A stretch of 64,000 nt of DNA from Thermoplasmata archaeon (GTDB lineage: Archaea > Thermoplasmatota > Thermoplasmata > Lutacidiplasmatales > UBA184). The position numbers and the translations under genes are program-made. How positions within the stretch are numbered: the first letter of the stretch is position 1; every line of letters begins with the position of its first letter. Where the stretch lies: the NCBI GenBank assembly GCA_028864975.1, contig JAGWLG010000015.1, forward strand, positions 1-64,000. Direction: 5' to 3'. The notes under the pieces are model-generated. The model did not search any database. It saw only the letters and a program-made list of their open reading frames with translations, and had not been told where the DNA came from. Below, piece by piece: positions 31,565 to 48,129 of the stretch.

Positions 31565-32356
31565 ATGGCGCCCAAGGACCTCTACCGGCTGCTGGGGGTG
31601 CCCTCCTACGCCTCCCAGGAGCGCATACGGACCGCCTACCGCAAGATGGTCCGCCGCTACCATCCCGACGTCTACCACGGGGACGCCGATGTGGCCCATG
31701 CCAACTTCCGAGAGCTCACGGAGGCGTACGATCTGCTCACCGACCCTTCCCGTCGGCGCGAGTACGACCGAAGGCGGGAGGAGGAACTGGCCGCAGCGGA
31801 GGTCCTCGACGCGGAGCAGCATCGTCGATGGCTGCACTTCCCTCCCCCCGAGACCTCCGCCACTCCCACCATTGAGGGACGCGGTGGCCTCCAGACCTTC
31901 CGTAAGGCCTTTCGCAAGGCGAACGAGCAGCGGCTCTCCCGCCAGGACATCTCTCGTAGGACGAAGCTCCTCCTGGTGGCGGGTTTCGCGACCTTCTGTG
32001 CGGTCCTTCTCCTTCTGGTTGCGGTCCCCGTCTCCCAGCCCTTCTCGTTCTCCCAGGCCCCGGCTCCCGGCTGTGGGAACGGAGGAGGGGCCACCTACCA
32101 GTTCCTTCGTGGGGACCGAGTCACCCTGGCGTGGACCGTCCTGTCCGGGAACTTCACGAACACTTCGACGCTGGACGTCCAAGTGACGGGCTCGGCAGGC
32201 ACAGTGTCCATGGAGAGCGAGGCGCTACCAGGTTCCTCCGGGACCTACTCCTTCGTGGCGGATGGGAACGCGTACCAGTTCGCCAGCTGCTATTGGGGGC
32301 GCGGCTCCATCTCCGAGGTCCAGTTCAGCGGGAACTTCGTGGGGCCTCTGGTCTGA
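31565..32356 (+). CDS. J-domain protein with TM helix and C-terminal beta-rich domain
   Basis: DLYRLLGV...IRTAYRKMVRRYHPD...AYDLLTDP.RRREYD; hydrophobic LLLVAGFATFCAVLLLLVAV. Confidence 0.85.
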   Translation: MAPKDLYRLLGVPSYASQERIRTAYRKMVRRYHPDVYHGDADVAHANFRELTEAYDLLTDPSRRREYDRRREEELAAAEVLDAEQHRRWLHFPPPETSATPTIEGRGGLQTFRKAFRKANEQRLSRQDISRRTKLLLVAGFATFCAVLLLLVAVPVSQPFSFSQAPAPGCGNGGGATYQFLRGDRVTLAWTVLSGNFTNTSTLDVQVTGSAGTVSMESEALPGSSGTYSFVADGNAYQFASCYWGRGSISEVQFSGNFVGPLV

Positions 32357-32409
32357 GCTCCCCTTGGGGGGGCCGGGGCCAACGCCGTTCTTGGCGGGGC
32401 GCCCGCGAC

Positions 32410-32832
32410 CTATGCGAGCGCGATGTCGAGCCGGTCGAGCAACGCCCGGACGTGCTCCGGACCGATCGGTTTCCGCAGGTAGGCCTCCACCCGAAGCCCC
32501 TGAGCATTGAGCTCCTCGAGCTCGGGAAGCGAGCCGGTCAGGACCACGACGGGCAGACTCGAGGTCTTCGGGCGCGAGCGGATCTCCCCCAGGAAGTCGA
32601 CGCCCGACATGCCGGGCAGGTGCAGGTCAAGGAACACGATATCGGGCAGGTTGTCTTCAGAGGAGGTGCTCCAGCGCTGCAGCAGCTCCAGAGCGGCCTC
32701 GCCCGAGGTCGCGGTCATACTGGAGACGTCCAGCCCGGACCGCTGGAACACCTCCTGCATGTAGCGAGCGTCTCCGGGGTTGTCCTCGACGAGCAGGACG
32801 TGGAGCTTCCGGGTCGATCCTAAGGTGGCCAT
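32410..32832 (-). CDS. Single-domain response regulator (receiver)
   Basis: LLVEDNPGD, VFLDLHLPGMSG, VVLTGS, LRKP. Confidence 0.92.
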   Translation of the reverse strand: MATLGSTRKLHVLLVEDNPGDARYMQEVFQRSGLDVSSMTATSGEAALELLQRWSTSSEDNLPDIVFLDLHLPGMSGVDFLGEIRSRPKTSSLPVVVLTGSLPELEELNAQGLRVEAYLRKPIGPEHVRALLDRLDIALA

Positions 32833-32983
32833 GTGCGACGAGTGACGGGGGCAAGCCGTCTAAGGAGTCCATGGAGGAGGGGATATAGGGGAGGCCCGTA
32901 TCCATGCGTATAGCTGACCGCCCGGCGCCGACCCCGGACTCCCGCCTACAAGCCTGAAATACGGTCGGAGGCTGGAGCCTTCG

Positions 32984-33052
32984 ATGACCATTCCGAGCGG
33001 AACAGCCAAGGCTGCGCGCGCGGGCGGTCGGTATTTCTGGTCCTGGTGGTGA
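32984..33052 (+). CDS. Putative attenuation leader peptide MTIPSGTAKAARAGGRYFWSWW (22 aa; below ORF-track cutoff)
   Basis: ATG 32984 preceded by GGAGG (32967-71) and GGAG (32974-77); codons TAT TTC TGG TCC TGG TGG TGA at 33032-33052; 107 nt upstream of the aro/trp operon. Confidence 0.85.
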   Translation: MTIPSGTAKAARAGGRYFWSWW

Positions 33053-33159
33053 GCGGAGGCGCCGAACCGGCCTCCTCCTCAGCGTCCACCAAGACTTGAT
33101 GAGCAGGACGGTCCGGTACCTCCCTCGCCTCTCCGGGAACGGAAGGAGAGAAGGAACGG
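33023..33159 (+). promoter_or_regulatory. Putative attenuator RNA with alternative helices; one helix covers the SD of the first operon gene
   Basis: 33044-60 pairs with 33070-91 or with 33119-29; 33129-34 CTCTCC pairs with GGAGAG 33145-50; no U-tract. Confidence 0.62.
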
Positions 33160-33918
33160 ATGAACGGCAAGGAGCTGCGCCTGCGTCGACTCTTCCCTAG
33201 CCCACGGGCCCGACTCTTTGCGGTCCCCTTGGACCACAGCTTGTCGGTCGGACCCATCGAGGGGCTCCGCCAGTTGGAGCCTACGGCGCGATCGCTCCAG
33301 GAGGGCGGCGTGCGCTGCCTCATCGTTCACAAGGGGGGGGTTCGGACCATCGCCGCCTCGCTCATGCCCTCCACCCTCTTGGGGGTCCACCTCTCCGCCT
33401 CGACCTCCCTGGCCCAGGATACGGGGCGGAAGCGGATCGCAGGGACGGTCGCGGAAGCGGTCCGACTCGGCGCGGACCTGGTGAGCGTTCAGGTCAACTT
33501 TGGGGACCCGGCAGAGGGCGAGATGCTGGAGGACCTCGGGCACATGGCCGAGGAGTGCGAGGCGCTGGGGATGCCGCTCCTCTGCATGACCTACGTCAGA
33601 TCGAAGGGCAAGGAGATCGAAGAGGCGGCGCTCGCCCACGCGTGCCGGGCCGCCGCGGACCTGGGGGCCGACGTCATCAAGACCAACTTCCCGAGCTCCC
33701 ACGGGTTCCGCAGGCTCGTAGAGAGTACCCCCGTGCCCGTCCTCGTGGGGGGGGGGCCGAAGCTCGACCGGGAGGAGGACCTCCTCCAACTCGTCCGAGA
33801 CGCGACCGAAGCGGGTGCGCGAGGCATCTGCATCGGGAGGAACCTGTTCCAATCGTCGGACATTGTCGCGACCGCTCGCAAGGTCGCTTCGACGCTCGAC
33901 GGGGTCGCCAAGGGCTGA
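33160..33918 (+). CDS. aroA': 2-amino-3,7-dideoxy-D-threo-hept-6-ulosonate (ADH) synthase, class I aldolase (MJ0400-like)
   Basis: VPLDHS, AVRLGADLVSVQVNFG, GMPLLCMTY, ADLGADVIKT (Schiff-base Lys), GRNLFQ; first gene of an aro cluster. Confidence 0.87.
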   Translation: MNGKELRLRRLFPSPRARLFAVPLDHSLSVGPIEGLRQLEPTARSLQEGGVRCLIVHKGGVRTIAASLMPSTLLGVHLSASTSLAQDTGRKRIAGTVAEAVRLGADLVSVQVNFGDPAEGEMLEDLGHMAEECEALGMPLLCMTYVRSKGKEIEEAALAHACRAAADLGADVIKTNFPSSHGFRRLVESTPVPVLVGGGPKLDREEDLLQLVRDATEAGARGICIGRNLFQSSDIVATARKVASTLDGVAKG

Positions 33919-33929
33919 GGGAGCAACGC

Positions 33930-34964
33930 ATGGACCGACAGAGGATCGTCCTGGAGCTCGAGGCGGGCGAGGCCGGCGAACGGCTTCGTGGGTACGCCGA
34001 ACGACGCGGGTTCCACCGGTTCCTCCTTGCGGTCGGCGCAGCGAAGTCCACCCTGGTCGGACGTGAGGTCGTCCTGCGCAAAGGGACCGCTCTTCGATTC
34101 CCCGGTGGGGGAGGGGAAGGCGAGGTGCTCCGGGTGGCCCGCCCTGCGGACCTCGAAGGGGTGCTTCGGGCGCTTCAGGCCCGGCCCCTGGTCCTGGTCG
34201 AATTCGATCGCGAGCGGGTCATCCCTCTGGAGAATCTCATCGCCATGCGGCAGACCGCGGGGGAACACGCTCCGGGGGCCCTTTGGGTCCGCGCCCAACG
34301 TGCCGAGGAAGTGCCGGGCCTCCTAGGTGCCCTGGAGCATGGTTCGGACGGAGCGGTCGTGGCCGTCTCGGTGACGGAAGAGATCGACCGGCTCGAGGCC
34401 CACATCGATCGCCCCCGACTCGAGCTCTCCTGGAAGATCGCCCAGGTCGCACGCGTGACGCCCGGGGGGATCGGGGAGCGCGTGGTGGTCGACACGACCA
34501 GTCTGCTTGCCGAGGACGAGGGGATGCTCGTGGGGAGCCAGGGTGCGTTCCTCCTCCTGGTGGCTTCCGAGGCGCAAGGGTCGCGCTACACGAGACCCCG
34601 ACCGTTCCGCGTCAACGCGGGAGCGGTGCACTCCTACACGCTGCTCGCCGATGGAACGACCCGCTACCTTAGCGAACTGGAGGCCGGGGACCGCGTGGTC
34701 GTGGCCCGGCCCCGAGGAGACGCGAGGAGCGTCCGCGTCGGTCGGCTCAAGATCGAGCGTCGCCCCTTCACCCTGGTCGAGGTCAAGGTGGGCGCCCGTC
34801 GCTACACCCTCTTCCTCCAGGAGGCGGAGACGGTGCGCCTGACCACGCCCAAGGGTCCCAAGCCCGTCCCGGAGCTCTCGATACGCGACCGCTTGCTGGG
34901 GGTCGAACTTCCCGCCGCACGCCACTTTGGCATGGCCGTGCACGAGACGATCCTGGAGCGCTAG
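33930..34964 (+). CDS. aroB': 3-dehydroquinate synthase type II (MJ1249-like)
   Basis: GERVVVDT, EGMLVGS, RPFRVNAGAVHSY, YLSEL, VGRLKIERRP, RHFG; true start ATG 33930. Confidence 0.95.
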   Translation: MDRQRIVLELEAGEAGERLRGYAERRGFHRFLLAVGAAKSTLVGREVVLRKGTALRFPGGGGEGEVLRVARPADLEGVLRALQARPLVLVEFDRERVIPLENLIAMRQTAGEHAPGALWVRAQRAEEVPGLLGALEHGSDGAVVAVSVTEEIDRLEAHIDRPRLELSWKIAQVARVTPGGIGERVVVDTTSLLAEDEGMLVGSQGAFLLLVASEAQGSRYTRPRPFRVNAGAVHSYTLLADGTTRYLSELEAGDRVVVARPRGDARSVRVGRLKIERRPFTLVEVKVGARRYTLFLQEAETVRLTTPKGPKPVPELSIRDRLLGVELPAARHFGMAVHETILER

Positions 34965-34967
34965 GAG

Positions 34968-36560
34968 ATGGGAGCGCGGGACCACGCGATCGACCCCGAG
35001 GTCCTCGCCCCCCGGCCCGGACATCCGCTCCTCGTGGCGACCCTCCCTGGCCGGAAGGCGGAGGACCTTCGAACCGAAGTGCAGCAAGCTGCCGAGGCTG
35101 GCGCCGACCTGGTCGAGTTCCGCCTGGATCGGTTGTCGCGGGGAGAGGTGGGGAGGCTCGAGAGGGTGCATGAGCTGCCGCTCCTGCACCCTTGGGTCCC
35201 CGCGATCGCCACGCTGCGCTCGAAGGCCGAAGGGGGAGAAGGCCCGGACGACCTCCCCTCGCGCCGTAAGCTCGTCCTGGAGGCCCTCGACTCGCTTCCG
35301 TTCAGTTTCGTCGACCTCGAGGTCGCGCGCGATCTGCCGATGCGGGAGGAGCTCCGGAGCGCGGAAGGCCGCCGGCTCGGGGTCGTGGGCTCGGCCCACC
35401 TGCCCGCCGGGACCCCTACGGAGAAGGCGGTCCGGACCCTTCGTGCGGCGATGCAGGGGAACGAGGTGGCCAAGGTCGTTCTCCCGGCTCCCGCGGGCCA
35501 GGTGGTCCGAGAGATCCTCCCGGCCCTGGAAAGTTTCCGAGGCTCTCCCTATGTTTGTCACACGACCGGGGGTGCCGGGTCGCTGCTCCGTGTCCTCGCG
35601 CCACGCCTCGGGATGGCCTGGGTCTACTGCCGCCTACCGGGCGACCGCGGGGTGGCGGAGGTCGAACGCTCTCAGGTCCCCCTCGATCGGATGCGGCGCT
35701 TCATCAACTCCGGTCCGGAGGCCCCCTGGATGGCGGTCGTCGGGAACCCTATCGGCCACACTCTCTCCCCCGACCTTCAGGCCTCCTTCCTGAAAGCGAC
35801 CCATACCGAGGGCATCTACGTCGCGCTCGAGCTCACGTCCGAGGAGGAGTTCATGACCGTCCTCCCGGCCCTCCGACGCTACGGGCTGCGGGGGGTGAAC
35901 GCGACCCGTCCGTTCAAGCGGGCCGCGTATCAGCTAGCCAAGGTCCGTAGCGAACACGCCAGCGCTAGCGCGGCGGTGAACACGCTCGTCGCGGACCCTG
36001 CCGATCCTACGGGGTTCCGTGGGCACAACACGGACGTCTCCGCCCTGCTTCGCTGGTGGGGAGAGCTCGAGAAGGCGGGGACCCCGCTGGACCGGGTCCT
36101 GGTGGTGGGGACCGGGGGGGCCGCGCGCGCGGCGGTGCTCGCGAGCGTCCTTCACGGAGCCCAGGTCTTCGTCCTGGGCCGCCGCCCCGAGCGGGTCCAG
36201 GAGCTGGTCCATGACTTCCCTCCCGAGACGGTGCACGCGATCCCGCCGGGGTCCCTGCGAGAGTTCCCGCTCGTCGTCCACGCCACCCCCGTGGGCCAGG
36301 AGGGGGAGGAAGGGGGGGTCCTCGAGGTCCCCCTACAACGTGCTCTCGGAAGCGGAAGCCTCTTGGTCGACCTCGTGTACCGCCCTCGAGCGTCCACCGT
36401 GCAAGACCTGGTGAAGGCCCCTGGCGCCCGCTACGTCGACGGGATGCGGATGCTCGTTTACCAGGCTGCCGAAACCTTCCGTCTTTTCACCGGGACCCAG
36501 GTCCCCGACCGTCTGGTCGAGGAGTGGGTAGCCCCCGCTGCCGAGGGGGTGGCGGCATGA
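34968..36560 (+). CDS. aroDE: Bifunctional type I 3-dehydroquinate dehydratase / shikimate dehydrogenase
   Basis: N: GADLVEFRLD, ATLRSKAEGG, SAH, VAKV. C: GNPIGHTLSP, AVNT, GHNTD, GTGGAARA, DLVYRP, DGMRMLVYQA. Confidence 0.92.
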   Translation: MGARDHAIDPEVLAPRPGHPLLVATLPGRKAEDLRTEVQQAAEAGADLVEFRLDRLSRGEVGRLERVHELPLLHPWVPAIATLRSKAEGGEGPDDLPSRRKLVLEALDSLPFSFVDLEVARDLPMREELRSAEGRRLGVVGSAHLPAGTPTEKAVRTLRAAMQGNEVAKVVLPAPAGQVVREILPALESFRGSPYVCHTTGGAGSLLRVLAPRLGMAWVYCRLPGDRGVAEVERSQVPLDRMRRFINSGPEAPWMAVVGNPIGHTLSPDLQASFLKATHTEGIYVALELTSEEEFMTVLPALRRYGLRGVNATRPFKRAAYQLAKVRSEHASASAAVNTLVADPADPTGFRGHNTDVSALLRWWGELEKAGTPLDRVLVVGTGGAARAAVLASVLHGAQVFVLGRRPERVQELVHDFPPETVHAIPPGSLREFPLVVHATPVGQEGEEGGVLEVPLQRALGSGSLLVDLVYRPRASTVQDLVKAPGARYVDGMRMLVYQAAETFRLFTGTQVPDRLVEEWVAPAAEGVAA

Positions 36561-37453
36561 GCGCCGCAGGTCCGGTGACGATGGGGCCGACGCTTCGTGA
36601 CGGCGCCTGGGGCGCCATCTCCTTCCTGAACGCGATCCCCCAGGGGATCGGCTGTGCCGCCGCGATCTCCCTTCCCGTCACGGTCGAGGTCCAGTACGTC
36701 CCGGCTCCGCCGCAGAGCAAGCCCTGGCTCGACACCACCGAGGGGGAGGCGACCCCGCTCCTGCGCTGGACCCTGGACAAGGTCTACGAGAGCGTTCCCG
36801 TCCCTCCCATCTACAAGTTCCATGTGGCGGTGAGGTCGGGGGTTCCCCCCCAAAAGGGCCTCAAGAGCTCCTCGGCGGTCTCCGTCGCCCTCGCGCGGGC
36901 GCTGCGTCGGGTCCTAGGCCAGAGCCCGACCCCTGCGGAAGTCGCCACGCTCTCCGCCAAGGCGGCCCTGGCGGCGGGGGTCTCGGTCACCGGCGCCTTC
37001 GACGACGCGCTCGCGTGCGCCATGGGCGGCGTGGTGGTCGCTGACGTCCGGGCGCACTGGCAGATGCTCTCCACCGAGGTCCCTTCGGGACTTCAGGCCC
37101 TCCTCTGGATACCGGAGACCACCCGCCCCGACCTTGCGAAGCGGAGCTCCGAGCTGAGGGCGCCCGACATGAACGCCAAGGAGGCGGTCCGCCTCGCGCT
37201 CCGGGGCGACTATCTCAAGGCGATGAAGTACAACTCGCTCGTCGTGGAGCGGGCGTTGGGTTACGATTACGCCAAGTTACGCGAGGCCGGGCTCACCAAG
37301 GGAGCGCTGTCGGCCGGGGTCACCGGGAACGGTCCGGCGGTGGCCTTCGTCTGCCCCCGGGAGCTGACCCCGCAGGTGGCCTCCGCCCTACCATGGCAGG
37401 GCGCGAAGCTGCTCACGGCGGAGTTCGTGCGCCCCGGGGTGGTGCCCGCGTGA
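36557..37453 (+). CDS. aroK: Archaeal shikimate kinase (GHMP family)
   Basis: GAISFLNAI..GIG, PPQKGLKSSSA, SVTGAFDD, AGVTGNGPA; ATG 36557 (ATGA overlap). Confidence 0.93.
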   Translation: MSAAGPVTMGPTLRDGAWGAISFLNAIPQGIGCAAAISLPVTVEVQYVPAPPQSKPWLDTTEGEATPLLRWTLDKVYESVPVPPIYKFHVAVRSGVPPQKGLKSSSAVSVALARALRRVLGQSPTPAEVATLSAKAALAAGVSVTGAFDDALACAMGGVVVADVRAHWQMLSTEVPSGLQALLWIPETTRPDLAKRSSELRAPDMNAKEAVRLALRGDYLKAMKYNSLVVERALGYDYAKLREAGLTKGALSAGVTGNGPAVAFVCPRELTPQVASALPWQGAKLLTAEFVRPGVVPA

Positions 37454-38904
37454 TGGTGCCTGCCGAACGTCAACGACCCGCAAGGACCGCCACTTCGCCG
37501 GACCCCGAAGCGGCTCTTCTCAGGTTGAATGAGGGTGCGGGCCTGCCGCCGCTTCCAGGACGGGTCGTGGTCACCCCGGGCACCGCCCGCGGGACGCTGA
37601 CCGCTCCACCTTCCAAGAGCTACACCCACCGCGCGCTCGTCGTCGCCGCGCTCGCCGAGGGACCCACGAGGGTGATCGGGGGGCTCCGGAGCGAGGACAC
37701 GCTGGCCAGCCTTCGGGCGGTCATCAGGTTGGGTGGGCAGCTGCGGGCAGCCCCCCCTGAGGCGCCTCCGGGAGGGGAAAGCGTCCTTCCTCCGCTCGCG
37801 CTCGACCCTCTCCCCCTGGGCCCGAGTCATGGAGGGGTGGCGGAGATCGACACCGCCGAGTCCGGGACCACCCTGCGGCTCTTTAGCGCCGTCGCCGCGC
37901 TCCTCCCTCGTACCTCCCGCTTCTCCGGGAGTCCTTCTCTCGCCCGGCGCCCTCTGGGTGGGCTCCTCCAAGCCCTTGCTTGTCTGGGGGCCAGCTTCGA
38001 TGGCCCTCCTCCAGGTCGGTCCCTACCCTTCTCGGTCCGCGGGCCGCTCCACGGGGGGAGCGTCTCGGTCTCCGGGAGCGAAAGTAGCCAGTTCACTTCC
38101 GCGCTGCTCATCGCGCTCCCTTGCCTTGCGGAGGGCTCCGAGCTCCAGGTCGCAGGTGCGAGGGTGAGCCTTCCGTACGTGGAGGCAACGCTCGAGGTCC
38201 TGCGACAGCAAGGAGTGCACATCGAGAGCGCGCCCTCCAACCGCTACGTCATCCCGGGCGGTCAGCGCTACCGGGGAGGCCACCTCACGGTCACGGGCGA
38301 CGCCTCCTCCGCCGCGTACTTCCTCGCCTTGGGCGCCATCCAAGGTGGGCCCATCACGGTCAAAGGGGTTGACCTGCACGTCCCGCAGGCCGACCTGGCC
38401 CTGCTCCCTGTGCTCGAACGTGCAGGGGCACGCGTCCGTCGCGGCGAACGGGAGCTCACCGTGGAGCGCCGCGGGGGAAGGCTCTCGCCCTTCGAGGTCG
38501 ACCTGACGGCCTCGCCCGATCTTGCCCCCCTTCTGGCCGTCGTGGCCGCCTTCGCCCAGGGGCGATCAAAGCTGCTCGGGGCTTCCCATCTCGAGGCCAA
38601 GGAGAGCGACCGTCGACAGGGCTCCTTGAGGCTGGCCCAGGCGCTGGGCGCGAGCGCACGAGCGACCGAGGAAGGTATCGAGGTCGAGGGCCCCGTTCAG
38701 GTGTGCTCGCTGGACCTGAGGGACCTCTCGGACCACCGGATGTTCATGAGCGCCGCGGTCGCCGCTGCCGCCCTCAAGGAGCCCTCGACGCTCGAAGACC
38801 CCCGGGTGGTGCGCAAGTCCTACCCGGGTTTCCTGGAGGACCTGGGGAGCCTGGGGATACAGGTCGAAGGCGCTCGGGGGGGAGCTCCTGGGAGGTCGAC
38901 ATGA
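37450..38904 (+). CDS. aroA: EPSP synthase
   Basis: PPSKSYTHR, ESGTTLR, SSQFTSALL, GDASSAAYF, KESDR, DHRM, KSYPGF; GTG 37450 or ATG 37453. Confidence 0.95.
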   Translation: MMVPAERQRPARTATSPDPEAALLRLNEGAGLPPLPGRVVVTPGTARGTLTAPPSKSYTHRALVVAALAEGPTRVIGGLRSEDTLASLRAVIRLGGQLRAAPPEAPPGGESVLPPLALDPLPLGPSHGGVAEIDTAESGTTLRLFSAVAALLPRTSRFSGSPSLARRPLGGLLQALACLGASFDGPPPGRSLPFSVRGPLHGGSVSVSGSESSQFTSALLIALPCLAEGSELQVAGARVSLPYVEATLEVLRQQGVHIESAPSNRYVIPGGQRYRGGHLTVTGDASSAAYFLALGAIQGGPITVKGVDLHVPQADLALLPVLERAGARVRRGERELTVERRGGRLSPFEVDLTASPDLAPLLAVVAAFAQGRSKLLGASHLEAKESDRRQGSLRLAQALGASARATEEGIEVEGPVQVCSLDLRDLSDHRMFMSAAVAAAALKEPSTLEDPRVVRKSYPGFLEDLGSLGIQVEGARGGAPGRST

Positions 38905-39989
38905 GGATGGCGATCGGGGAAGCGCTCCGTCTCACCCTCTTTGGCTCAAGCCACGGTCCCGTCGTGGGTGCCGTGCTCGAGGGTCTCCCCGCGGGGACCC
39001 CTGTCGACCTTGAGGCGGTCCAGCGCGAGCTGGACCGTAGGCGCCCCATCGGTCGCGCGCTCGCGACCAAGCGGCGGGAAGAGGACCAGCTCCGAGTGGA
39101 ATCCGGGCTCGTCAACGGACGCACCACGGGAGACCCGCTCGTCGGGGTGGTCGAGAACCGGGACGTCCGGCGAGGGCCATACCGAGAGCTCGAGGACGTC
39201 CCTCGACCCGGGCATGCGGACTTCCCCGCGAGGATGCGATACGGCGAGGCCTTCGACCTTTCCGGAGGGGGGATCTTCTCCGGCCGGATGACCGTGGGGC
39301 TGGTCTTTGGAGGGGCGGTCGCCCGAGGCCTCCTCTCCCCTCAGGGGATCGATGTGCTCGCCTTCACCCGCTCCTTGGGAGGGGTCGACGCCTCGGCGGC
39401 CTCGCTCGAGCGACGGCTCCCTGAGCTTCGTGCCGACGTGCTGTCGCACGAGGTGGGGTGCCCGGACCTGTCCGCGTCCAAGCGGATGTCGGAGGCGATC
39501 GAGCGCGCACGGAAGGACGGCGACAGCGTCGGGGGTGTCATCGAGGTGCGGGCTGAGGGGCTGCCCGTCGGGGTGGGCGAGCCGTTCTTCGACTCGGTCG
39601 AGAGCACCCTCGCCCATGCGCTCTTCTCGGTCCCGGCGGTCAAGGGGGTCGAGTTCGGCGCGGGATTCACGGCCGCAAGGATGCGCGGGAGCGAGCACAA
39701 CGACCCGTTCTTCGTGGAGGACGGACGGGTCCGTAGCCGCACCAACCACGCCGGAGGCATCCTGGGGGGGCTCACCACGGGAATGCCCCTGGTGGCGCGG
39801 GTCGTGGTCAAGCCCACCTCCTCGATCGCCAAGGAGCAGGAGTCCGTCTCGCTGAGCACGAAGTCCTCACGTAGGCTTGTGGTCAAGGGGCGGCACGACC
39901 CATGTATCGTCCCGCGTGCGGTCCCCGTGGTGGAGAACCTCACCGCGTTCGTGCTGGCGGACCTGATGGCCCGCGGGGGGTTCCTGTGA
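38901..39989 (+). CDS. aroC: Chorismate synthase
   Basis: FGSSHG, PRPGHAD, GGGIFSGR, KDGDSVGG, VPAVKGVEFG, NHAGGILGG, KPTSSI, GRHDPC. Confidence 0.96.
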   Translation: MRMAIGEALRLTLFGSSHGPVVGAVLEGLPAGTPVDLEAVQRELDRRRPIGRALATKRREEDQLRVESGLVNGRTTGDPLVGVVENRDVRRGPYRELEDVPRPGHADFPARMRYGEAFDLSGGGIFSGRMTVGLVFGGAVARGLLSPQGIDVLAFTRSLGGVDASAASLERRLPELRADVLSHEVGCPDLSASKRMSEAIERARKDGDSVGGVIEVRAEGLPVGVGEPFFDSVESTLAHALFSVPAVKGVEFGAGFTAARMRGSEHNDPFFVEDGRVRSRTNHAGGILGGLTTGMPLVARVVVKPTSSIAKEQESVSLSTKSSRRLVVKGRHDPCIVPRAVPVVENLTAFVLADLMARGGFL

Positions 39990-41074
39990 GCGAAGCGCGC
40001 CGGAGGACGGTGCTCCTGGGCGCGAGCGGCTGGATCGGGCAGCACTTCGCGCGGTTGTTGGACGACCATCCGTACTTCGACTCCCCGATCCTGACCGGGG
40101 CGACGAGCGCGGGGAAGAGCCTGGGCGAGCTCTGGCAGCTGGCGGACCAGCCCGTGCCCCAGGGGCTCGCAGAATCGAAGATCGAGAGGTTGACCCCTGC
40201 GGAGATCGCGCGGAGGGGGGTCGAGGTCGCCTTCAGCGCCCTTCCTTCGGGGGAGGCCGGAGCCTTCGAGGCCGAGCTCGCCCGCCGGGGGGTCGCCGTC
40301 TTCTCCAACGCTTCCGCGCATCGGATGGACCCCCAGGTCCCCTTGGTCATCCCCGAGATCAACGGGGACCATCTCGACGCCATCGAACGGCAGCCGTGGG
40401 AAGGCAGCATCGTCACGAACTCGAACTGTTCTACGGCAGGCCTCGTGCTGGCCCTCGCTCCCCTGGTGCCCTTGCTCCGGCCCAAGGAGGTCTTCGTGGC
40501 GACCTACCAGGCCCTCTCCGGGGCAGGCTACCCTGGGGTCCCCTCCCTGTCGATCGAGGACAACGTCCTTCCGTTCATCGCGGAGGAGGAGGAGAAGATG
40601 GAGCGTGAGACCGCGAAGATCCTGGGGGGCTTTCGGGGCGGACGTTTCCGTCCCCTCTCGCTTCCCGTGAGCGCGCACTGCGCTCGCGTAGGCTCCCGGG
40701 AGGGCCACCTCGAGGCCGTGACCCTCAAGGCCGGGACCCCTGCCAAGGCCTCGGAGATCGTTCGGGCTTGGGAGGACTTCCAACCCCTCTCCCCTCGAGC
40801 GCGTGGCGACCGTGAAACGCTCCCGACCGCCCCTGATCACCCCGTGGTCTACCGGCGGGAGGTGGACCGTCCTCAGCCCATCCGCGACCGTTGGGCCGGG
40901 ACCCCCGCGCGCGCACGGGGCATGGCCGTGAGCGTCGGCCGCCTCCGGGTCGACCGTGAGCATGTCCGGTTCTTCACGCTCTCGCACAACGCGGTCCGAG
41001 GGGGAGCTGGTGGGAGCGTGCTCAATGCCGAGCTCGCCCTTCGGAAGGGGCTTCTCGGAGGGCGACGGAGATGA
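39986..41074 (+). CDS. asd: Aspartate-semialdehyde dehydrogenase (archaeal type)
   Basis: GASGWIGQ, FSALPS, SNASAHRM, VTNSNCST (catalytic Cys), YQALSGAGY, HNAVRGGAGG; GTGA overlap. Confidence 0.95.
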   Translation: MSEARRRTVLLGASGWIGQHFARLLDDHPYFDSPILTGATSAGKSLGELWQLADQPVPQGLAESKIERLTPAEIARRGVEVAFSALPSGEAGAFEAELARRGVAVFSNASAHRMDPQVPLVIPEINGDHLDAIERQPWEGSIVTNSNCSTAGLVLALAPLVPLLRPKEVFVATYQALSGAGYPGVPSLSIEDNVLPFIAEEEEKMERETAKILGGFRGGRFRPLSLPVSAHCARVGSREGHLEAVTLKAGTPAKASEIVRAWEDFQPLSPRARGDRETLPTAPDHPVVYRREVDRPQPIRDRWAGTPARARGMAVSVGRLRVDREHVRFFTLSHNAVRGGAGGSVLNAELALRKGLLGGRRR

Positions 41075-42456
41075 CCACGGAAGCGCTTTGCGTCGTCAAG
41101 TACGGAGGGGCCGCCCTCGGTTCGGAGGAGAGCCTCCGGGACGTGATCCGTGAACTGCGAGCTCGCAAAGGCCCCATCGTAACGGTCGTTTCCGCACGGG
41201 AAGGGGTCACGGACCTGCTCAAGGCGGCGACCGCCGACCCCGCGAGCCGCGCTCGGCACGAAGAGGTCCTTCGCAAGCTCACCGCGCTCCATGCGGGGGG
41301 ACCCCGAGAGGTTACGCTCGCGCTGCGCGCGCTCGAACGGCAGCTCACCCGTCTGCGGAGCGCGATGCGTCAGCTGCCTCCCAGGGCCCGCCGCTACCCC
41401 TCCACCCGCGCGCCGGTCGTCCTTTCGGACGCTATCCTCGCGCAGGGAGAGCGCCTGGCGGCGCATTGGTTCGCCGACCGTCTCCGACATGGGCGGGTAG
41501 CGGCACGGGCCTTGGAAGCGGACCTGATCGGGCTCTCGACGGACGACCACCACGGCGAGGCGATCGTCCTGCTCGACCGGTCGGAGCTCCCGGTCCGCCG
41601 CGCCGTGACGCCCCTGCTGAGGCGGGGCCAGGTGCCGGTGGTCACCGGGTTCCTGGGCCGATCTCCCTCCGGGAAGGTCGCGACGCTCGGCCGAGGAGGG
41701 TCGGACTACTCGGCGACGTGCCTCGGGTACCTTCTCGGGGCCTCCCGCGTGGAGCTGGTCAAGAAGGACGTCTCGATCCTTACAGCGGACCCCCGCATCG
41801 TCCCGGCCGCCCGGCCTCTCTCGCGCCTCTCCTACGAGGAGGCGGAGGAGCTGGCGCAGTTTGGCGCCAAGGTCCTCCACCCGCTCACCGTCGAGCCCGC
41901 CCGCGCGCGTGGCGTCGAGGTCGTGATCCGCTCCCTCGAGGACCCGACCAGGACCACGACCATCGGACCCGCCCTTCCGGGGGAAGGCATCCGGGCCTTG
42001 ACGCTCCTTTCGCCCACGGCGATGCTCCTGCTCCGCGTTCCGGGGGGGCGCCAGCGGAGGGGGGTGATCGCCGAGGTGAGCCGCACGCTCGCCGCGGCGG
42101 AGGTGAACGTCATCACGATGTTCACCTCCTCGGCCCTCCTGATCGTGCTCGTTGAGATGGCCTCGGGCCGCAAGGCCCGCAGGGCCTTGGACCCGTTCGC
42201 TCGGGGGGACGGGGCCTCGCTGGAAGGGCCGCTGGAGGCCGCCCTGGTGACCGCGATCGGGGAGGGGGTGCTCGCGGACCTCGGAGGGCTTCCGGGGGAC
42301 GTGGCCTCCCGGGCGCTCGGGGTCTCGGCGACCTCCCGGACCCTCTCCTTCGCCGTGCCCATGGCCTCGGGTCGCGAATCGCTCGTGAGCCTCCACCGTG
42401 CCCTGGTCGAGCTTCCCCGAGCGGTCACGCTCGAGGGCACCGTCCGGGGCACCTGA
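41071..42456 (+). CDS. lysC: Aspartate kinase with ACT domains
   Basis: VKYGG, VVSA..GVTD, GER, TLGRGGSDYSA, TADPRIV, LSYEEA.ELA.FGAKVLHP. Confidence 0.92.
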   Translation: MTTEALCVVKYGGAALGSEESLRDVIRELRARKGPIVTVVSAREGVTDLLKAATADPASRARHEEVLRKLTALHAGGPREVTLALRALERQLTRLRSAMRQLPPRARRYPSTRAPVVLSDAILAQGERLAAHWFADRLRHGRVAARALEADLIGLSTDDHHGEAIVLLDRSELPVRRAVTPLLRRGQVPVVTGFLGRSPSGKVATLGRGGSDYSATCLGYLLGASRVELVKKDVSILTADPRIVPAARPLSRLSYEEAEELAQFGAKVLHPLTVEPARARGVEVVIRSLEDPTRTTTIGPALPGEGIRALTLLSPTAMLLLRVPGGRQRRGVIAEVSRTLAAAEVNVITMFTSSALLIVLVEMASGRKARRALDPFARGDGASLEGPLEAALVTAIGEGVLADLGGLPGDVASRALGVSATSRTLSFAVPMASGRESLVSLHRALVELPRAVTLEGTVRGT

Positions 42457-42471
42457 AAGGGGGAGCATGCG

Positions 42472-43758
42472 ATGCCGGCACCCACCCCCCGAGCCGGCCC
42501 CCACCGCGACCCGTGGTGGAACTTCGTTCGTCGGAGCGCGGAGGACCCCGCGAGCGCCTTCTACTTCGAGCGGGGGGCCTCCCCCGGTCGGAGCGGACGC
42601 TACTCGTTCTTCGGGTTCGGCCCGTCCGAGCGAGAGGAATGGTCCGAACCTCGGGACGTGTCGGCCTCGCGCCTCCGCGTCCGGGGGAACGACCCACATC
42701 GCGCGGACGGAAGCTGGGTCGGGTTCGTCGGGTTCGACGCCGTAGGGCTTTTCGAACCTCTGCTCGGGCCCTCGACCCCCCGAGGCTCACCCTTCCCGGT
42801 CGCCCTGTTCGACCGGTACCCGCATGTCGAGCACGCCCACCATCTTGGGGCCCCCGAAAGGGGGGCCGCGCCCGGTCTTCCCCCGAGCCCCGAAGTTGGT
42901 GAGGTCGAGGACTCCACAACGCGCGACCGCTTCGAGCGCTCGGTGGAGCATCTCCGCGAGGCGATCTACGACGGCGAGGCCTTCCAGGTCGTCCTCGCGC
43001 ACCGGCGGTCCCGGCGCTTCAGGGGGAGCCTGCTCCCGGTGGTCGACCGCCTGCGTCGCGAGGAGCACTTCGCCTTCCTGTACTATCTCCGCATCGTGGA
43101 CGGGACCTCGGCAGGAGGAACGCCCATCGAGATCGCGGGGGCGTCGCCCGAGTCCGTAGTCGAGATCCGGGACGGGACGGTCGCGGTCAACCCGATCGCC
43201 GGGACCCGCCCCCTCCCCGCCCCCACGCGGGGACCCGCGGCCCGCCTTCCGTTGGACAAGGACCCCAAGGAGCTCGCGGAGCACCGGATGCTCGTCGATC
43301 TCGCCCGCAACGATATCGGACGGGTCTCCCAGGTGGGGAGCGTCCACCTCTCTCGACGTGAGACCCGCGTGCCTTACGCACGTCTGGAGCACCTCGTCAG
43401 CCGGGTCGTCGGCCGTCTGAGCAACGGCGCGAGCGCGATCGACGCGCTGGTCGCGACCTTCCCGGCGGGGACGGTGAGCGGGGCGCCCAAGATCCGTGCC
43501 ACCGAGCTTTTGCGCAGGGAGGAGCGGTCCTGGCGCGGGACGTACGGGGGGACGGTCGGGATCGTGACCCCCGGCGGGGAGGCCGATTTCGCGCTCGCGA
43601 TCCGCTCGGCCGCCGCGGCCCGGGGCCGGGTCTACACGCAGGCCGGAGCGGGGATCGTCCACCTCTCGAAACCCGCCCAGGAATGGGAGGAGACCCTCGC
43701 CAAGCTGGCGACCGTCGAGCGGGCCCTCGAGGGAAAGATACGGAGGGTCCGGCGTTGA
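42472..43758 (+). CDS. trpE: Anthranilate synthase component I
   Basis: GEAFQVVL, GASPE, PIAGTR, DPKELAEHRMLVDLARND, FPAGTVSGAPKIRA, AIR, QAGAGIV. Confidence 0.93.
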   Translation: MPAPTPRAGPHRDPWWNFVRRSAEDPASAFYFERGASPGRSGRYSFFGFGPSEREEWSEPRDVSASRLRVRGNDPHRADGSWVGFVGFDAVGLFEPLLGPSTPRGSPFPVALFDRYPHVEHAHHLGAPERGAAPGLPPSPEVGEVEDSTTRDRFERSVEHLREAIYDGEAFQVVLAHRRSRRFRGSLLPVVDRLRREEHFAFLYYLRIVDGTSAGGTPIEIAGASPESVVEIRDGTVAVNPIAGTRPLPAPTRGPAARLPLDKDPKELAEHRMLVDLARNDIGRVSQVGSVHLSRRETRVPYARLEHLVSRVVGRLSNGASAIDALVATFPAGTVSGAPKIRATELLRREERSWRGTYGGTVGIVTPGGEADFALAIRSAAAARGRVYTQAGAGIVHLSKPAQEWEETLAKLATVERALEGKIRRVRR

Positions 43759-44342
43759 AGCTCGTGCTCATCGACCATCAGGATTCCTTCGTCTACAACC
43801 TCGCCCAGGCCCTCGGTCGGCTTGGGGCCGAGGTCGTCACGCTGCGCTCGAGCCTTCCGCTGCGAGCGGTCCTGCGCGAGGACCCGGACCTCCTCGTCCT
43901 CTCCCCGGGGCCGGGCCATCCTTCGGACCCCCGAACGATGGGAGTGACCCCTCGACTGCTTTCCCGGGGAGGGCTGGCGCGCGAGCTCCCCACGCTGGGG
44001 GTCTGTCTGGGACACCAGGCGATCGGTGCGGCGTTCGGAGGGACGGTGCACCGAGGCCCCTACCCCTGCCACGGAGAGACCTCGCGGGTCCTGCATCACC
44101 GAGAAGGGCTCTACGAAGGGGTCCCCAGCCCCTTCTCGGCGGCCCGGTACCACTCTCTGGTCGTGGACCGCCACGACCTCCCCGCCGAGCTCGAGGAAAC
44201 GAGCTGGGAGGCGGGTGGAGTACTGATGGGCCTGCGCCACCGGACGCTTCCCATCGAGGGCGTTCAGTTCCACCCCGAGTCCTATCTTACGCGGTACGGC
44301 GATAGGCTCCTCGGGAACTTCCTGAAGAGGGCCCGCCGATGA
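43755..44342 (+). CDS. trpG: Anthranilate synthase component II (glutamine amidotransferase)
   Basis: IDHQDSF, SPGPG, GVCLGHQ, RYHSL, QFHPES; TTG 43755 (TTGA overlap). Confidence 0.95.
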   Translation: MKLVLIDHQDSFVYNLAQALGRLGAEVVTLRSSLPLRAVLREDPDLLVLSPGPGHPSDPRTMGVTPRLLSRGGLARELPTLGVCLGHQAIGAAFGGTVHRGPYPCHGETSRVLHHREGLYEGVPSPFSAARYHSLVVDRHDLPAELEETSWEAGGVLMGLRHRTLPIEGVQFHPESYLTRYGDRLLGNFLKRARR

Positions 44343-45412
44343 ACGTGGATCCCTCGACAGGACCCGCGGCCTTGCAGCACCTGGTCCAGGGGGAGGACCT
44401 CGGACCTGAGGAGGCCCGAGAGGTCGCCGAGGGTCTGTTGACGGGGGCCTTCCCCCCGGAGGTCGTGGCGTCCCTCCTCACGGCCCTGGCTGCGAAAGGA
44501 GAGAGCCCGGAGGAGCTCTACGCCTTCTCCTCGACCCTGCGGGCGCGAGCTCGACCCTTCCCGGGACCCGCGGAGGCCGGGGCCGTGGACCTGTGCGGGA
44601 CGGGGGGGGCGAAGACGCCGACGTTCAACATCTCGACGGTCAGCGCCTTCGTCCTCGCGGGGGCGGGCGTCCCGGTCGCCAAACATGGGAACGTCTCCGC
44701 CCGAAGGCCGTGCGGGTCCTCGGACGTACTGAGCGCCCTAGGGCTTCCGGTCCTTCGCTCCGTGGCCTTCGCCGAGGCCTCCTGGAGGAAGGAACGGCTC
44801 TGCTTCCTCCATGCTCCGCTCTTCCATGCCGCGACCCGGAGCGTGGCGCCGGTCCGCAAGGCGCTTGGGCTCCGGACCATCTTCAATCAGCTGGGGCCTC
44901 TCACGAACCCTGCAGGGGTCTCGACGCAGCTCGTAGGGTGTTTCTCGAGGGAGTATGCCCGGCGGGTCACCCCCGTGCTCCACCGGTTGGGCGTGCACCG
45001 GTCCCTCGCGGTCCACGGGAAGGGAGGGATGGACGAGCTCAGCTCCAAGGGGACGGACTGGCTCCTCCGATCGGTCGAAGCGAGCGGTGAGGGCGGGGGC
45101 GCGACCGAGGTCTCGATCGACCCTTCCACGCTCCTGTCGCCCGAGGAGCGCCGTGGCGACCTTCGTCCCCGGTCGCCTGGGGAGGCGGCCGAGCTCACGC
45201 GGGCGGTCCTCTCGGGAGAAGGGGACGGAGCGGTCCGCGGGGCCGTCCTGCTGACCGCAGGGGCCGCGATATGGCTTCACGGCTCCGCCCCCGAGCTGCC
45301 GAGTGGCGTGGCGTTGGCGAGGTCGGCCCTTCAGGACGGCCGGGCGCTCGACAAGCTCCAGAAGCTCCAAGCGCTCGCCCGCTCCCAGGACTGGCCGGAG
45401 GGGTCCCCTTGA
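44339..45412 (+). CDS. trpD: Anthranilate phosphoribosyltransferase
   Basis: DLCGTGG, FNIST, KHGN, GSSD, RTIFNQLGPL.NP, GMDE. Confidence 0.96.
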   Translation: MNVDPSTGPAALQHLVQGEDLGPEEAREVAEGLLTGAFPPEVVASLLTALAAKGESPEELYAFSSTLRARARPFPGPAEAGAVDLCGTGGAKTPTFNISTVSAFVLAGAGVPVAKHGNVSARRPCGSSDVLSALGLPVLRSVAFAEASWRKERLCFLHAPLFHAATRSVAPVRKALGLRTIFNQLGPLTNPAGVSTQLVGCFSREYARRVTPVLHRLGVHRSLAVHGKGGMDELSSKGTDWLLRSVEASGEGGGATEVSIDPSTLLSPEERRGDLRPRSPGEAAELTRAVLSGEGDGAVRGAVLLTAGAAIWLHGSAPELPSGVALARSALQDGRALDKLQKLQALARSQDWPEGSP

Positions 45413-46287
45413 GCCCACGGTCTCCCACGAACCCGGCACGGGCCGACGCGAAGTCCGCTCCAGGGAACTTCCTGGACACCATGGTGAAGACGGTGGAGGA
45501 GGAACTGCGCGCGGGGCTCTACGCACGGCGCCCACCCCGAGGGGACGAGCCCCCGCCGGGACGTCCCCGGTTCGCGGAGGCCCTTCATCGGGTCTCGGAG
45601 GGGCCGGCCTTGATGGTGGAGCTCAAGCATGCCTCCCCCGGGCGCTCGCAGCCGCGGCTTCCTGCGCTCTCTCCGGAGCGTTTCGTTCGGGTGTGCGAGG
45701 ACGCGGGGATCAGCGCGCTCTCGGTGATCCCTCAGCCCTACGAGTTCGGAGGCAACCTGGAGGAGTTCGGGAAGGTCGCCCACCTATCCCGTCTGCCGCT
45801 CCTTTTCAAGGACTTCATCATCGATGAGGCCCAGATCCAGGCCGCGAAAGTGCACGGAGCTTCGGCGGTCCTGCTCCTCGCCCGGCTCGCGCGCGCCCAG
45901 TCCCTGCACGGCAACCTGGAAGGGCTGGTGAAGGCGGCCCATGCTCGAGGGCTGGAGACCCTGGTGGAAGTGCATGCGAAGGCCGAGGTACCCCTAGCGC
46001 TCAGCTCCGGGACGGACGCCCTTGGGGTCAACGCCCGAGACCTCGGAACGCTCCACCTGGACCCTCGCTCCGCGCTGCCGGTGCTGCGCGAGCTGCGCAA
46101 GGACCCCCGGCCGCTCGTGGCCATGAGCGGCGTGGAAGGACCGCGCGAGGTGGCCCTCTACGGCGCCTCGGGGGCCGACGCGATCCTCATCGGGACGGCC
46201 TTCGCGCGTTCCCACGACCCGCTCGCGTTCCTGCGGGGCCTGCGTGCGGAGCCCCCCCGCAACGAGGCCGCGGTGGGGGACCGTTGA
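45409..46287 (+). CDS. trpC: Indole-3-glycerol-phosphate synthase
   Basis: ELKHASP, FGG..E, LFKDFIID..QI, LVEVH, GVNARDL, MSG, LIG; TTG 45409 (alternative ATG 45481). Confidence 0.93.
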   Translation: MSPRSPTNPARADAKSAPGNFLDTMVKTVEEELRAGLYARRPPRGDEPPPGRPRFAEALHRVSEGPALMVELKHASPGRSQPRLPALSPERFVRVCEDAGISALSVIPQPYEFGGNLEEFGKVAHLSRLPLLFKDFIIDEAQIQAAKVHGASAVLLLARLARAQSLHGNLEGLVKAAHARGLETLVEVHAKAEVPLALSSGTDALGVNARDLGTLHLDPRSALPVLRELRKDPRPLVAMSGVEGPREVALYGASGADAILIGTAFARSHDPLAFLRGLRAEPPRNEAAVGDR

Positions 46288-46967
46288 CCCGATCGCAGGA
46301 CCGACCGCTGGTGAAGGTCTGTGGTCTCCGGACCTCACGAGACCTCGAGGCCGCGGAAGGAGCGGACCTCATTGGGGTCGTGGTGGAGGTGCCGGGGTCT
46401 CCCCGATCGGTATCGCTCAGAGAAGCGGAGGCCCTCTTCGAGCTCGCCCGAGGACGCTTCGATCGCGTGGCCGTCATGTGGGGCCCAGATGCAACTCGGA
46501 TCCGGGAGGTCCTTCGTGTAGCGGCCCCCGACCTCGTACAGGTGCACGGACCAGTCCCGACGGGGTTGAAGGAGGAAGAAGTGGGCAAGGTGGTCCCCTC
46601 CCTAGCGGTCCCGCAGGCCACCCCTCGGGACGCCCCTGCACCGGTGAAGGTGCCCGATGAGGGGGGGTACCCCTTCCTCCATCTGGACACCGCGGGAGGA
46701 CCGCTACCTGGGGGGACGGGACAGCGTTCCGATTGGTCCCTTTGCAGAGATCTCGTGGTCTCGCACCCTACGCAACGGTTTCTTCTGGGCGGTGGTCTCA
46801 CACCTGAGAACGTGGCGGAAGCGATCGAGCGGGTCCAGCCGCATGGCGTCGACGTCTCGAGCGGGGTCGAGGAGCGACCCGGGGTGAAGTCCCGCGAGAA
46901 GGTCGAGCGATTCCTTCGGGCCTCCCTTTCGGCCACGAAGCGTGGTAGGAGCGCGCGCGATGCCTGA
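46284..46967 (+). CDS. trpF: Phosphoribosylanthranilate isomerase
   Basis: [37 protein letters not shown]. Confidence 0.94.
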
Positions 46968-48129
46968 GTGGTACGGCCCCTTCGGAGGTACGTTCGTTCC
47001 GGAGACCCTCGTCCCCGCGCTGCAGGAGCTTGAGTCCGCCTGGCGCTCGGCGAGGAAGGACCCGGCCTTCAAGAGGGAGTTCCAGCGCCTGGCACGGGAG
47101 TGGGGAGGACGGCCGACCCCCCTCTACTTTGCCGAGAACCTGACCCGGGAGGTCGGTGGCGCGCAGATCTACCTCAAACGAGAGGACCTCGTCCACGGTG
47201 GAGCGCACAAGTTCAACAACGCCTTGGGGCAGGGGCTGCTGGCGAAGCGCCTCGGGAAGACCCGACTGATCGCCGAAACGGGCGCGGGACAGCACGGCGT
47301 CGCCACGGCCATGGTCGGAGCCAAGCTCGCGCTCCGGACCGAGGTGTACATGGGGGCCGTCGACATGGAACGCCAGAAGCCCAACGTCCAGCGCATGCGG
47401 CTCCTGGGCGCCACGGTTCGGCCCGTCGACCACGGGGGGAAGACGCTCAAGGAAGCGATCAACGAGGCGTTCCGGGATTGGATCACGAACGTCCAGTCCA
47501 CCTACTACCTGCTCGGGAGCGCGGTGGGTCCTCATCCGTTCCCTTCGATCGTGTGCGAGTTCCAGTCCGTGATCGGACGGGAGATCTTGCAGCAGGCGCG
47601 AAGCGCGTGGAAGGCGCTACCGGACCTGGTCGTCGCCTGCGTGGGCGGAGGCTCCAACGCCATCGGGACCTTCCACCCGCTGCTCAAGACCCCGGCGAAG
47701 CTTCTCGGGGTGGAGGCGGCGGGTTCGGGAGCCCCCCAAGCGGTCGGGTCCGCCTCCCTCACCAAGGGGCGGCCGGGGGTCCTGCAAGGGATGCGGACCT
47801 ACCTGCTCCAGGACGCGGAAGGCCAGATCCTGGAGACCGATTCCATCGCCGCGGGTCTCGACTACGCCGGCGTGGGGCCGGAGCACGCGTACCTGAAAGA
47901 GACGGGCCGGGTGGAGTACACGTCGGCGACCGACACGCAGGCGCTCGAGGCGTTCCATCGCCTGGCGAGGACGGAGGGCATCCTTCCGGCCCTCGAGCCT
48001 TCTCATGCCCTTGCCGAAGCGATCCGACGCGCCGCGACCATGCCGAAAGAGGCACGTATCGTGGTGACCCTCTCGGGGAGGGGCGACAAGGATCTGGAGG
48101 TGGTCGGCCAGCATGCCTCACCTGGGTGA
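46960..48129 (+). CDS. trpB: Tryptophan synthase beta chain (TrpB1 type)
   Basis: YG.FGG.FVPE, LKREDL.H.GAHKFNN (PLP Lys), [35 protein letters not shown]. Confidence 0.97.

Follow-up and report, generated by a model that had tools for sequence, protein, structure and literature searches.

Leader-peptide attenuation is a textbook bacterial mechanism, and its classical examples, such as enterobacterial trpL (RF00513), place tandem Trp codons by the stop codon of a short leader ahead of a Trp operon, where overlapping helices exclude one another and the ribosome on the last codons decides between them. The arrested leader ribosome can also act on translation: in the ermCL/ermC and cat leaders it remodels the hairpins and frees a downstream Shine–Dalgarno (SD) sequence, the arrest being drug- and peptide-dependent. 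In the tna operon, TnaC is a Trp-related short ORF in which ribosome occupancy at the UGA stop is the signal; it carries conserved arrest residues, controls the access of Rho and serves a catabolic operon. Leaderless polycysteine short ORFs of mycobacteria have been shown experimentally to attenuate cysteine genes at the level of translation (Canestrari et al., bioRxiv 10.1101/834739). The trp/aro regulators described in Archaea, TrpY of Methanothermobacter and Tar/TK0271 of Thermococcus, are DNA-binding proteins that act at promoters (PMC6737238), and no example of an archaeal leader-peptide attenuator was found in the literature searched.

The element described here lies upstream of an archaeal aro–asd–ask–trp operon and shares with trpL the tandem Trp codons by the stop, the overlapping exclusive helices, the predicted decision by a ribosome on the last codons and the association with Trp genes. 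Unlike trpL, it has neither a U-tract terminator hairpin nor an Rfam match; its last helix is an SD sequestor and its proposed output is translation, its host is an archaeon in which a TATA promoter precedes a leader mRNA that is probably leaderless, and no “1:2” hairpin is conserved. The closest described architecture is that of the mycobacterial polycysteine ORFs, in which a leaderless short ORF forms the first cistron and carries regulatory codons that specify the pathway's final product; those ORFs are bacterial and concern Cys, whereas the present element concerns Trp and adds a decoy that competes for one anti-SD strand, with a 110-nt rod as the open form. The proposed element would resemble ermCL/ermC and cat in that a held leader ribosome frees a downstream SD, but only Trp codons are conserved in its coding part, and the conserved peptide of TnaC is likewise missing. 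TrpY and Tar/TK0271 serve the same pathway and the same aromatic amino-acid response in Archaea; here, the candidate regulator is an RNA and leader-peptide device.

The operon, its promoter and the leader ORF

The window, meaning the whole 64,000-nucleotide stretch of DNA that was analysed, belongs to the G+C-rich genome of an archaeon. The public genomes nearest to it are metagenome-assembled genomes of Thermoplasmata from soil and peat, one family record bearing the name Candidatus Lutacidiplasma silvani; none of these organisms is in culture. Its aro–asd–ask–trp operon of 15 genes begins with aroA' (2-amino-3,7-dideoxy-D-threo-hept-6-ulosonate synthase, ADH synthase; 33160..33918, + strand) and extends to about 48934. 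Following aroA' are aroB', aroD–aroE, an archaeal shikimate kinase, EPSP synthase and chorismate synthase, and then aspartate-semialdehyde dehydrogenase, aspartate kinase and trpEGDCFB (trpE to trpB were scanned); judged from its ORF, trpA would complete the operon as trpEGDCFBA. The aro genes, asd/aspartate kinase and the trp genes are joined in a single co-oriented cluster (33160–48934), and asd and aspartate kinase supply aspartate-semialdehyde, a precursor in the archaeal ADH route. In five genera, trpE is found 8.9–9.5 kb downstream of aroA' on the same strand. The neighbour directly upstream of the leader promoter is a divergent gene for a stand-alone CheY-like receiver-domain protein (32410–32832, − strand); several relatives have instead a co-oriented gene there, whose product ends ...MWDAMLRGFALHRLL....

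A predicted TATA-like box (CTGAAATA; 32954..32961, + strand) ends 22 nt before the ATG of a leader ORF of 22 codons plus UGA (32984..33052, + strand), whose translation ends Y-F-W-S-W-W-stop. The Tyr codon (33032–34) and the Phe codon (33035–37) directly precede the first Trp codon (33038–40), two further Trp codons follow (33044–46 and 33047–49), and the stop occupies 33050–52, a clustering of Trp codons in a short leader ORF of the kind that defines trpL-type attenuators. The usual archaeal distance between TATA box and start sets the transcription start relative to the TATA box; as the TATA-to-ATG spacing here and in 46 of 61 homologues is 22–24 nt, the usual distance, transcription would begin at or next to the leader ATG, and the operon mRNA is probably leaderless. 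No sigma-70 promoter was found in the promoter scan.

Between the leader stop and the aroA' start lie 107 untranslated nucleotides. The terminator scan found no U-tract terminator after the leader, as the first-pass annotation had noted in remarking that no oligo-U follows any of the hairpins, so that the intrinsic terminator of the trpL type is absent; the sole terminator-like match sits within the leader ORF, with the tail TATTTCT, and those homologues that were read by eye show no oligo-T ahead of aroA'. Any transcriptional control would therefore have to be factor-dependent. A scan of 32000–34000 against Rfam gave no match better than E = 3 and none to Trp_leader (RF00513).

Homologous leaders were collected by way of AroA' homologues in relatives and the upstream regions of the same layout, which gave 61 distinct leaders ahead of aroA' from Thermoplasmata genomes of five genera in one family. 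Every one of them ends in W-x-W, WW or WWW followed by UGA, a stop codon that makes up 58% of stops genome-wide; the WW and WWW endings belong to the window's own genus and W-x-W is found elsewhere, with x mostly Leu (CUC) and otherwise UCC, GCC, CCC or GUC. The leader ORF has 23 codons in 42 of the 61 (22 in the window), and a TATA box with the consensus ..TAAATA stands 22–24 nt before the leader ATG in 46. Beyond the terminal W-x-W the peptide is not conserved, the N-terminal 15–18 residues varying freely while the frame is kept. The spacing from TATA box to ATG, together with the kept frame and length, lends indirect support to translation of the leader ORF. The window leader is alone among the 61 in having Tyr and Phe codons directly ahead of its Trp codons, and the middle codon of W-x-W (homologues of 33038–33049; alignment A2, columns about 13–22) always has the form N-Y-C.

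Conservation continues past the stop codon, where the layout reads NN-GGGAGG-CGCC-GGGAG-GGCGCC, with the aroA' ATG 93–115 nt further on. The motif formed by the Trp codons, the stop and GGGAGG occurs in 96 of 151 family genomes at about one copy per genome (the count includes one match each from the unpublished genomes G044 and G062, on which no other result here depends), and a reversed control gave almost no matches. It was not found in one genus of the family, and another genus gave a single match with one mismatch; the leader is absent from six aroA' loci of other families. A search of the window's own genome for further copies returned 7 one-mismatch matches against 12 for the reversed control, none of them credible.

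Two mutually exclusive folds of the leader mRNA

The first-pass annotation had proposed that mutually exclusive helices link the Trp codons and the stop of the leader with the SD of aroA', and all the pairings that it named are present in the window. They can be resolved into two folds that compete for one segment (33053..33064, + strand). This segment holds an SD look-alike, GGAGG (33055–59), referred to here as the decoy. The 3' end of the 16S rRNA in the window's own genome reads GGAUCACCUCCU, and since its tail is CCUCCU, GGGAGG is a true SD look-alike. Most homologues carry the decoy at a fixed distance after the stop, as UGA-NN-GGGAGG; the window has one G fewer.

The MFE fold of 33023–33165, fold L, is one long imperfect hairpin, a 110-nt rod (33034..33145, + strand) in which 33034–33086 pairs with 33093–33145 and which includes the Phe, Trp and stop codons and the decoy. 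The pairs GGUGAG 33048–53:CUCGCC 33124–29 and GGAGG 33055–59:CCUCC 33119–23 belong to this rod, so that the 33048–59:33119–29 helix drawn in the first-pass annotation as an alternative lies inside the MFE fold. Fold S is the best fold that retains the local hairpin P1 (33044..33091, + strand) and is 7.8 kcal/mol less stable than fold L in the window. P1 is built from 33044–49:33086–91 (UGGUGG with CCACCA), 33053–54:33082–83, 33055–59:33074–78 (GGAGG with CCUCC) and 33061–64:33068–71. The decoy thus has its partner at 33074–78 in fold S and at 33119–23 in fold L, and the segment 33053–33064, which is the 5' arm of P1 as well as the 5' strand of the long-range helix, can serve one fold only, in the manner of the exclusive helices of trpL.

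The choice of fold also settles the partner of a pyrimidine-rich anti-SD strand (33111..33135, + strand), composed of GUCCG (33111–15) and CCUCCCUCGCCUCUCC (33119–34), which pairs with the decoy in fold L and with the aroA' SD and AUG region in fold S. The aroA' ribosome-binding site (33140..33162, + strand) comprises the SD AGGAGA/GGAGAG (33144–50) and the start codon (33160–62). In fold S, a compound hairpin of 33111–33135 with 33140–33161 buries the SD and the A and U of the AUG, the sequestration in a helix that characterises translational attenuation. The pairing of CUCUCC 33129–34 with GGAGAG 33145–50, which the first-pass annotation saw covering the aroA' SD, arises as described once the end of the leader is masked. 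Its 33023–32:33061–72 pairing can form in the window but is not conserved among the homologues; its 33040–45:33104–09 pairing is another that the window sequence allows.

The fold of the window is modestly unusual by itself, with z-scores of −2.12 and −2.25 under shuffling and 4–6 of 200 shuffles folding equally well; the case therefore rests on conservation in the homologues. Helix pairing was scored on a sequence-only alignment (A2), with slid partners and shuffles as controls. The core of the long-range helix (17 pairs) is paired in 86.8% of cells, compared with 49–69% when the partners are slid, and contains 35 doubly changed cells, a count that, like the covariation score, was reached by 0 of 500 shuffles. 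The compensatory changes (among them the pair types GC37/AU13/GU11, GC36/CG9 and GC26/CG8) supply the covariation that the first-pass annotation had named as a check; they are distributed clade-wise and thus represent few independent events. For the long-range duplex, cognate strands give −41.9 kcal/mol against −37.9 kcal/mol for swapped strands (3.9 better), and 0 of 10000 permutations did as well.

P1 begins 5 nt past the stop in the homologues, where the corresponding helix is paired in 95.2% of cells (43–65% when slid) and varies little. RNAalifold, applied to sequence-only MAFFT alignments of the whole leader, found P1 alone. In most homologues the P1 stem (window 33053–33075) carries the palindrome GGCGCC on both arms; its conservation, far beyond the needs of a helix, is consistent with each base taking part in two pairings, and a role in protein binding may also be possible. 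The middle codon of W-x-W and the next U form a second short anti-SD (CUCU or UCCU); many of the predicted duplexes show it paired with the aroA' SD where the rod has its base.

Of 60 homologues, 58 have the SD-sequestering hairpin (mean 12 bp), and its stems are diverse (among them CCUUCG:CGAAGG, CCCUCGC:GCGAGG, CUGUG:CACAG, UCCCCC:GGGGGA). RNAalifold on the last 45 nt returned no pairs and no alignable consensus for this hairpin; its register and loop length differ between lineages and do not lend themselves to a column-wise test, and an alignment-free partner swap was therefore used. With whole tails, cognate partners gave −16.0 kcal/mol and swapped partners −14.4 kcal/mol, and 18 of 10000 permutations did as well; with the arms of the hairpin, 0 of 20000 permutations did as well, a figure biased by the definition of the arms on the cognate fold. 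SD occlusion reaches only z = +1.0 when compared with dinucleotide shuffles of the upstream strand, because any C/U-rich strand pairs with an SD, and the non-random part of the occlusion is chiefly the C/U-rich strand itself.

A counterpart of the classical “1:2” hairpin, in which upstream leader codons would pair with the decoy, was rejected, as cognate and swapped partners gave −29.5 and −29.3 kcal/mol, 3001 of 10000 permutations did as well, and the partner positions were scattered.

These comparisons bear on the alternative that G+C-rich sequence happens to be complementary here by chance and that nothing is regulated. The modest z-scores of the window fold (−2.1 to −2.25) and of SD occlusion agree with it, as does the ability of the G+C-rich leader codons to pair equally well with non-cognate partners. 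Chance is nevertheless disfavoured and can be regarded as most improbable, since the same arrangement recurs in 61 leaders and in 96 of 151 family genomes, one copy per genome, with compensatory changes in the long-range helix and fixed spacing; the motif-copy counts in the window's own genome and in the family also speak against a mobile or repeated element.

A conserved structure need not sense ribosomes, and the element might instead be a binding site for a protein or ligand, or an element in the stability or processing of the mRNA, with the short ORF incidental. The sequence of P1 and the decoy is conserved far past what the helices require, as such a site would be, and the translation of the leader is a prediction from sequence. 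An incidental ORF would hardly keep its frame, length and terminal Trp codons while its other codons diverge, or a fixed distance from its ATG to the TATA box; the double duty of each base in two pairings accounts for the strong sequence conservation equally well, and no Rfam family matches. This alternative is accordingly considered unlikely.

The first-pass annotation also suggested that factor-dependent termination, for example by FttA/aCPSF1 acting on the pyrimidine tracts 33071–80 and 33119–34, might be the output. FttA in Archaea terminates transcription when it is not coupled to translation. On this account the primary output would be transcriptional, the choice of fold or the 107-nt untranslated gap setting factor-dependent termination (FttA/aCPSF1-type polarity), or a pause ahead of or inside aroA', with SD occlusion secondary. 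Long C/U-rich single strands are indeed exposed in only one of the two folds, and a closed aroA' SD would invite FttA polarity in any case, so that this effect may accompany a translational output. However, both tracts are paired strands of conserved helices, better explained by the anti-SD pairing than as FttA/aCPSF1 sites, and the region with which the pyrimidine tract has its conserved, co-varying pairing is that of the SD and start, which indicates translation initiation as the target; no U-tract of the kind reported to aid archaeal termination follows the leader of the window. A primarily transcriptional output thus appears rather unlikely, and SD occlusion, the other output that the first-pass annotation had considered, gains plausibility from the hairpin found in nearly all homologues and from the dependence of SD accessibility on the position of the ribosome.

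Ribosome position and access to the aroA' SD

This dependence was computed for 26 representatives that are <75% identical over the 50 nt before the aroA' start and are related to one another. Across them, folds S and L are near-isoenergetic, with a mean difference (L minus S) of −2.1 kcal/mol (sd 4.9), and the six SD nucleotides are paired to a different extent, 4.8 of 6 in fold S vs 2.9 of 6 in fold L. The direct-path barrier from S to L amounts to 19–36 kcal/mol (an upper bound), suggesting that the fold chosen first persists.

When a ribosome footprint (A site −15 to +11) was imposed in folding, the cost of opening the SD was found to rise towards the end of the leader ORF. It is 3.1–3.5 kcal/mol with the A site at codons −8 to −3, 4.1 at −2, 5.5 at −1 (the last Trp codon) and 5.8 at the stop, and the step therefore falls within W-x-W-stop. 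Across the footprint runs, the first Trp codon gives 3.1–3.8 kcal/mol and the last Trp codon and the stop 5.0–5.8 kcal/mol; the free RNA is also open. The first Trp codon differs from the stop by −2.0 to −2.7 kcal/mol over three footprint lengths and is the lower of the two in 20–23 of the 26, according to the cut-off; the nominal p of about 5e-5 (Wilcoxon) and the permutation figures overstate the significance, because the representatives are related. Predicted accessibility thus varies with the stall position; the first-pass annotation had listed independence from that position among the outcomes that would speak against its proposal.

In the window, opening the SD costs 0.6–1.5 kcal/mol with the A site at codons −8 to −5 (the Tyr and Phe codons among them) and 3–6.5 kcal/mol from the first Trp codon on, so that the step lies 1–2 codons further upstream than in the homologues. 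For the first Trp codon of the window, the value ranges from 1.5 to 6.7 kcal/mol with the assumed footprint length.

Two features of these calculations constrain the physiology. The ribosome-free RNA at equilibrium has an SD-opening cost of 3.0 kcal/mol, as open as the stalled state, and of the Trp codons only the last is universally conserved, a position at which a stall is predicted to leave the SD closed. Repression in Trp excess would therefore need either a kinetic trap in fold S or a high occupancy of the stop codon.

The second of these routes leads to a different reading, in which the switch would report the dwell of the ribosome at the invariant Trp–UGA junction in place of a classical stall further upstream, a ribosome parked on the last Trp codon or the stop covering the decoy and shutting the operon while all other states leave it open. 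In its TnaC-like form, a peptide ending in W-x-W together with free Trp would slow release at the UGA when Trp is abundant, the parked ribosome would cover the decoy and the SD would close, and no parking would occur when Trp is scarce. The footprint calculations suit this form, as SD closure is predicted only for a ribosome on the last codon or on the stop, with the free RNA and upstream stalls leaving the SD open; the UGA and the C-terminal Trp are invariant (61/61), and the physiological direction comes out right without a kinetic trap. Known arrest peptides, however, require conserved residues along the tunnel, and outside W-x-W the leader peptide has none; the invariance of UGA, moreover, can be explained by pairing or by its part in the SD-like GGUGA. 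A sensor of dwell at the junction is therefore given a low probability, and its TnaC-like form in particular is judged very unlikely.

The proposed attenuator, a candidate Phe leader and their implications

The reading preferred here, which can be called fairly probable, is that the element is a leader-peptide attenuator with a translational output. When the decoy is free, it would capture the anti-SD strand to form fold L, leaving the real aroA' SD freer; when the decoy is locked in P1, the anti-SD strand would close the real SD and the start codon, as in fold S. A ribosome with its A site on the last Trp codon or the stop would cover the decoy, and the anti-SD strand would then shut the aroA' SD. 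A ribosome that halts earlier, on the first Trp codon in most homologues or on the Tyr and Phe codons in the window, would let the decoy take the anti-SD strand, and the SD would open. Stalling at UGG codons when Trp-tRNA is scarce would in this way lead to more translation of aroA', and the aro, asd/ask and trp genes further downstream would rise as well, by coupling and by being shielded from polarity.

Fold S would be the co-transcriptional default, because P1 is transcribed about 50 nt ahead of the anti-SD strand and forms first, and a ribosome that dwells long at the Trp codons would prevent P1 from closing before the rod nucleates, giving fold L. The result would be the logic of a classical attenuator with an SD sequestor in place of the terminator. 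The ON/OFF logic, which the first-pass annotation could not read by eye, appears to be narrowed by these results rather than settled; the response direction and the kinetic route given here are proposals.

A genome-wide scan for a TATA box followed by a leaderless short ORF rich in one amino acid returned the Trp leader and one Phe-rich candidate only. The latter lies outside the window on contig C29 of the same genome (L119:4052–4108, − strand) and is an 18-codon ORF ending F-F-P-Y-F-UGA, with a TATA-like box (TAGAAATAG) 26 nt before its ATG; it ends 37 nt before an ORF of 337 aa that encodes a fusion of prephenate dehydratase and chorismate mutase. By analogy with the Trp leader, it may be a Phe sensor on the same principle; it shows no obvious RNA motif similar to that of the Trp leader. 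Searches of family relatives (24 at E <= 1e-25; 15 at E <= 1e-8) found no homologue of this prephenate dehydratase gene, and a search with PF02153 (prephenate dehydrogenase) gave weak partial matches only. Among the family genomes searched, the window's own is thus the only one in which a prephenate dehydratase was found, and its Trp leader is the one with Tyr and Phe codons directly before the Trp codons. The codon content of the leader may track the aromatic end products of the organism, in what is a single case set against relatives' genomes that are 64–100% complete.

Were dwell at the UGA the signal after all, the element would represent a new decoy-based coupling of termination kinetics to the initiation of the next gene, in Archaea. 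If the preferred reading of a translational leader-peptide attenuator is true, archaeal ribosomes can serve as amino-acid sensors on leaderless mRNAs, and attenuation can operate without a bacterial-type terminator, through competition among decoy SD, anti-SD and SD. A single Trp sensor would then govern a 15-gene operon for chorismate, its aspartate-semialdehyde precursor and tryptophan. The element is short and sharply delimited, which makes the model directly testable and provides a search image for other archaeal attenuators.
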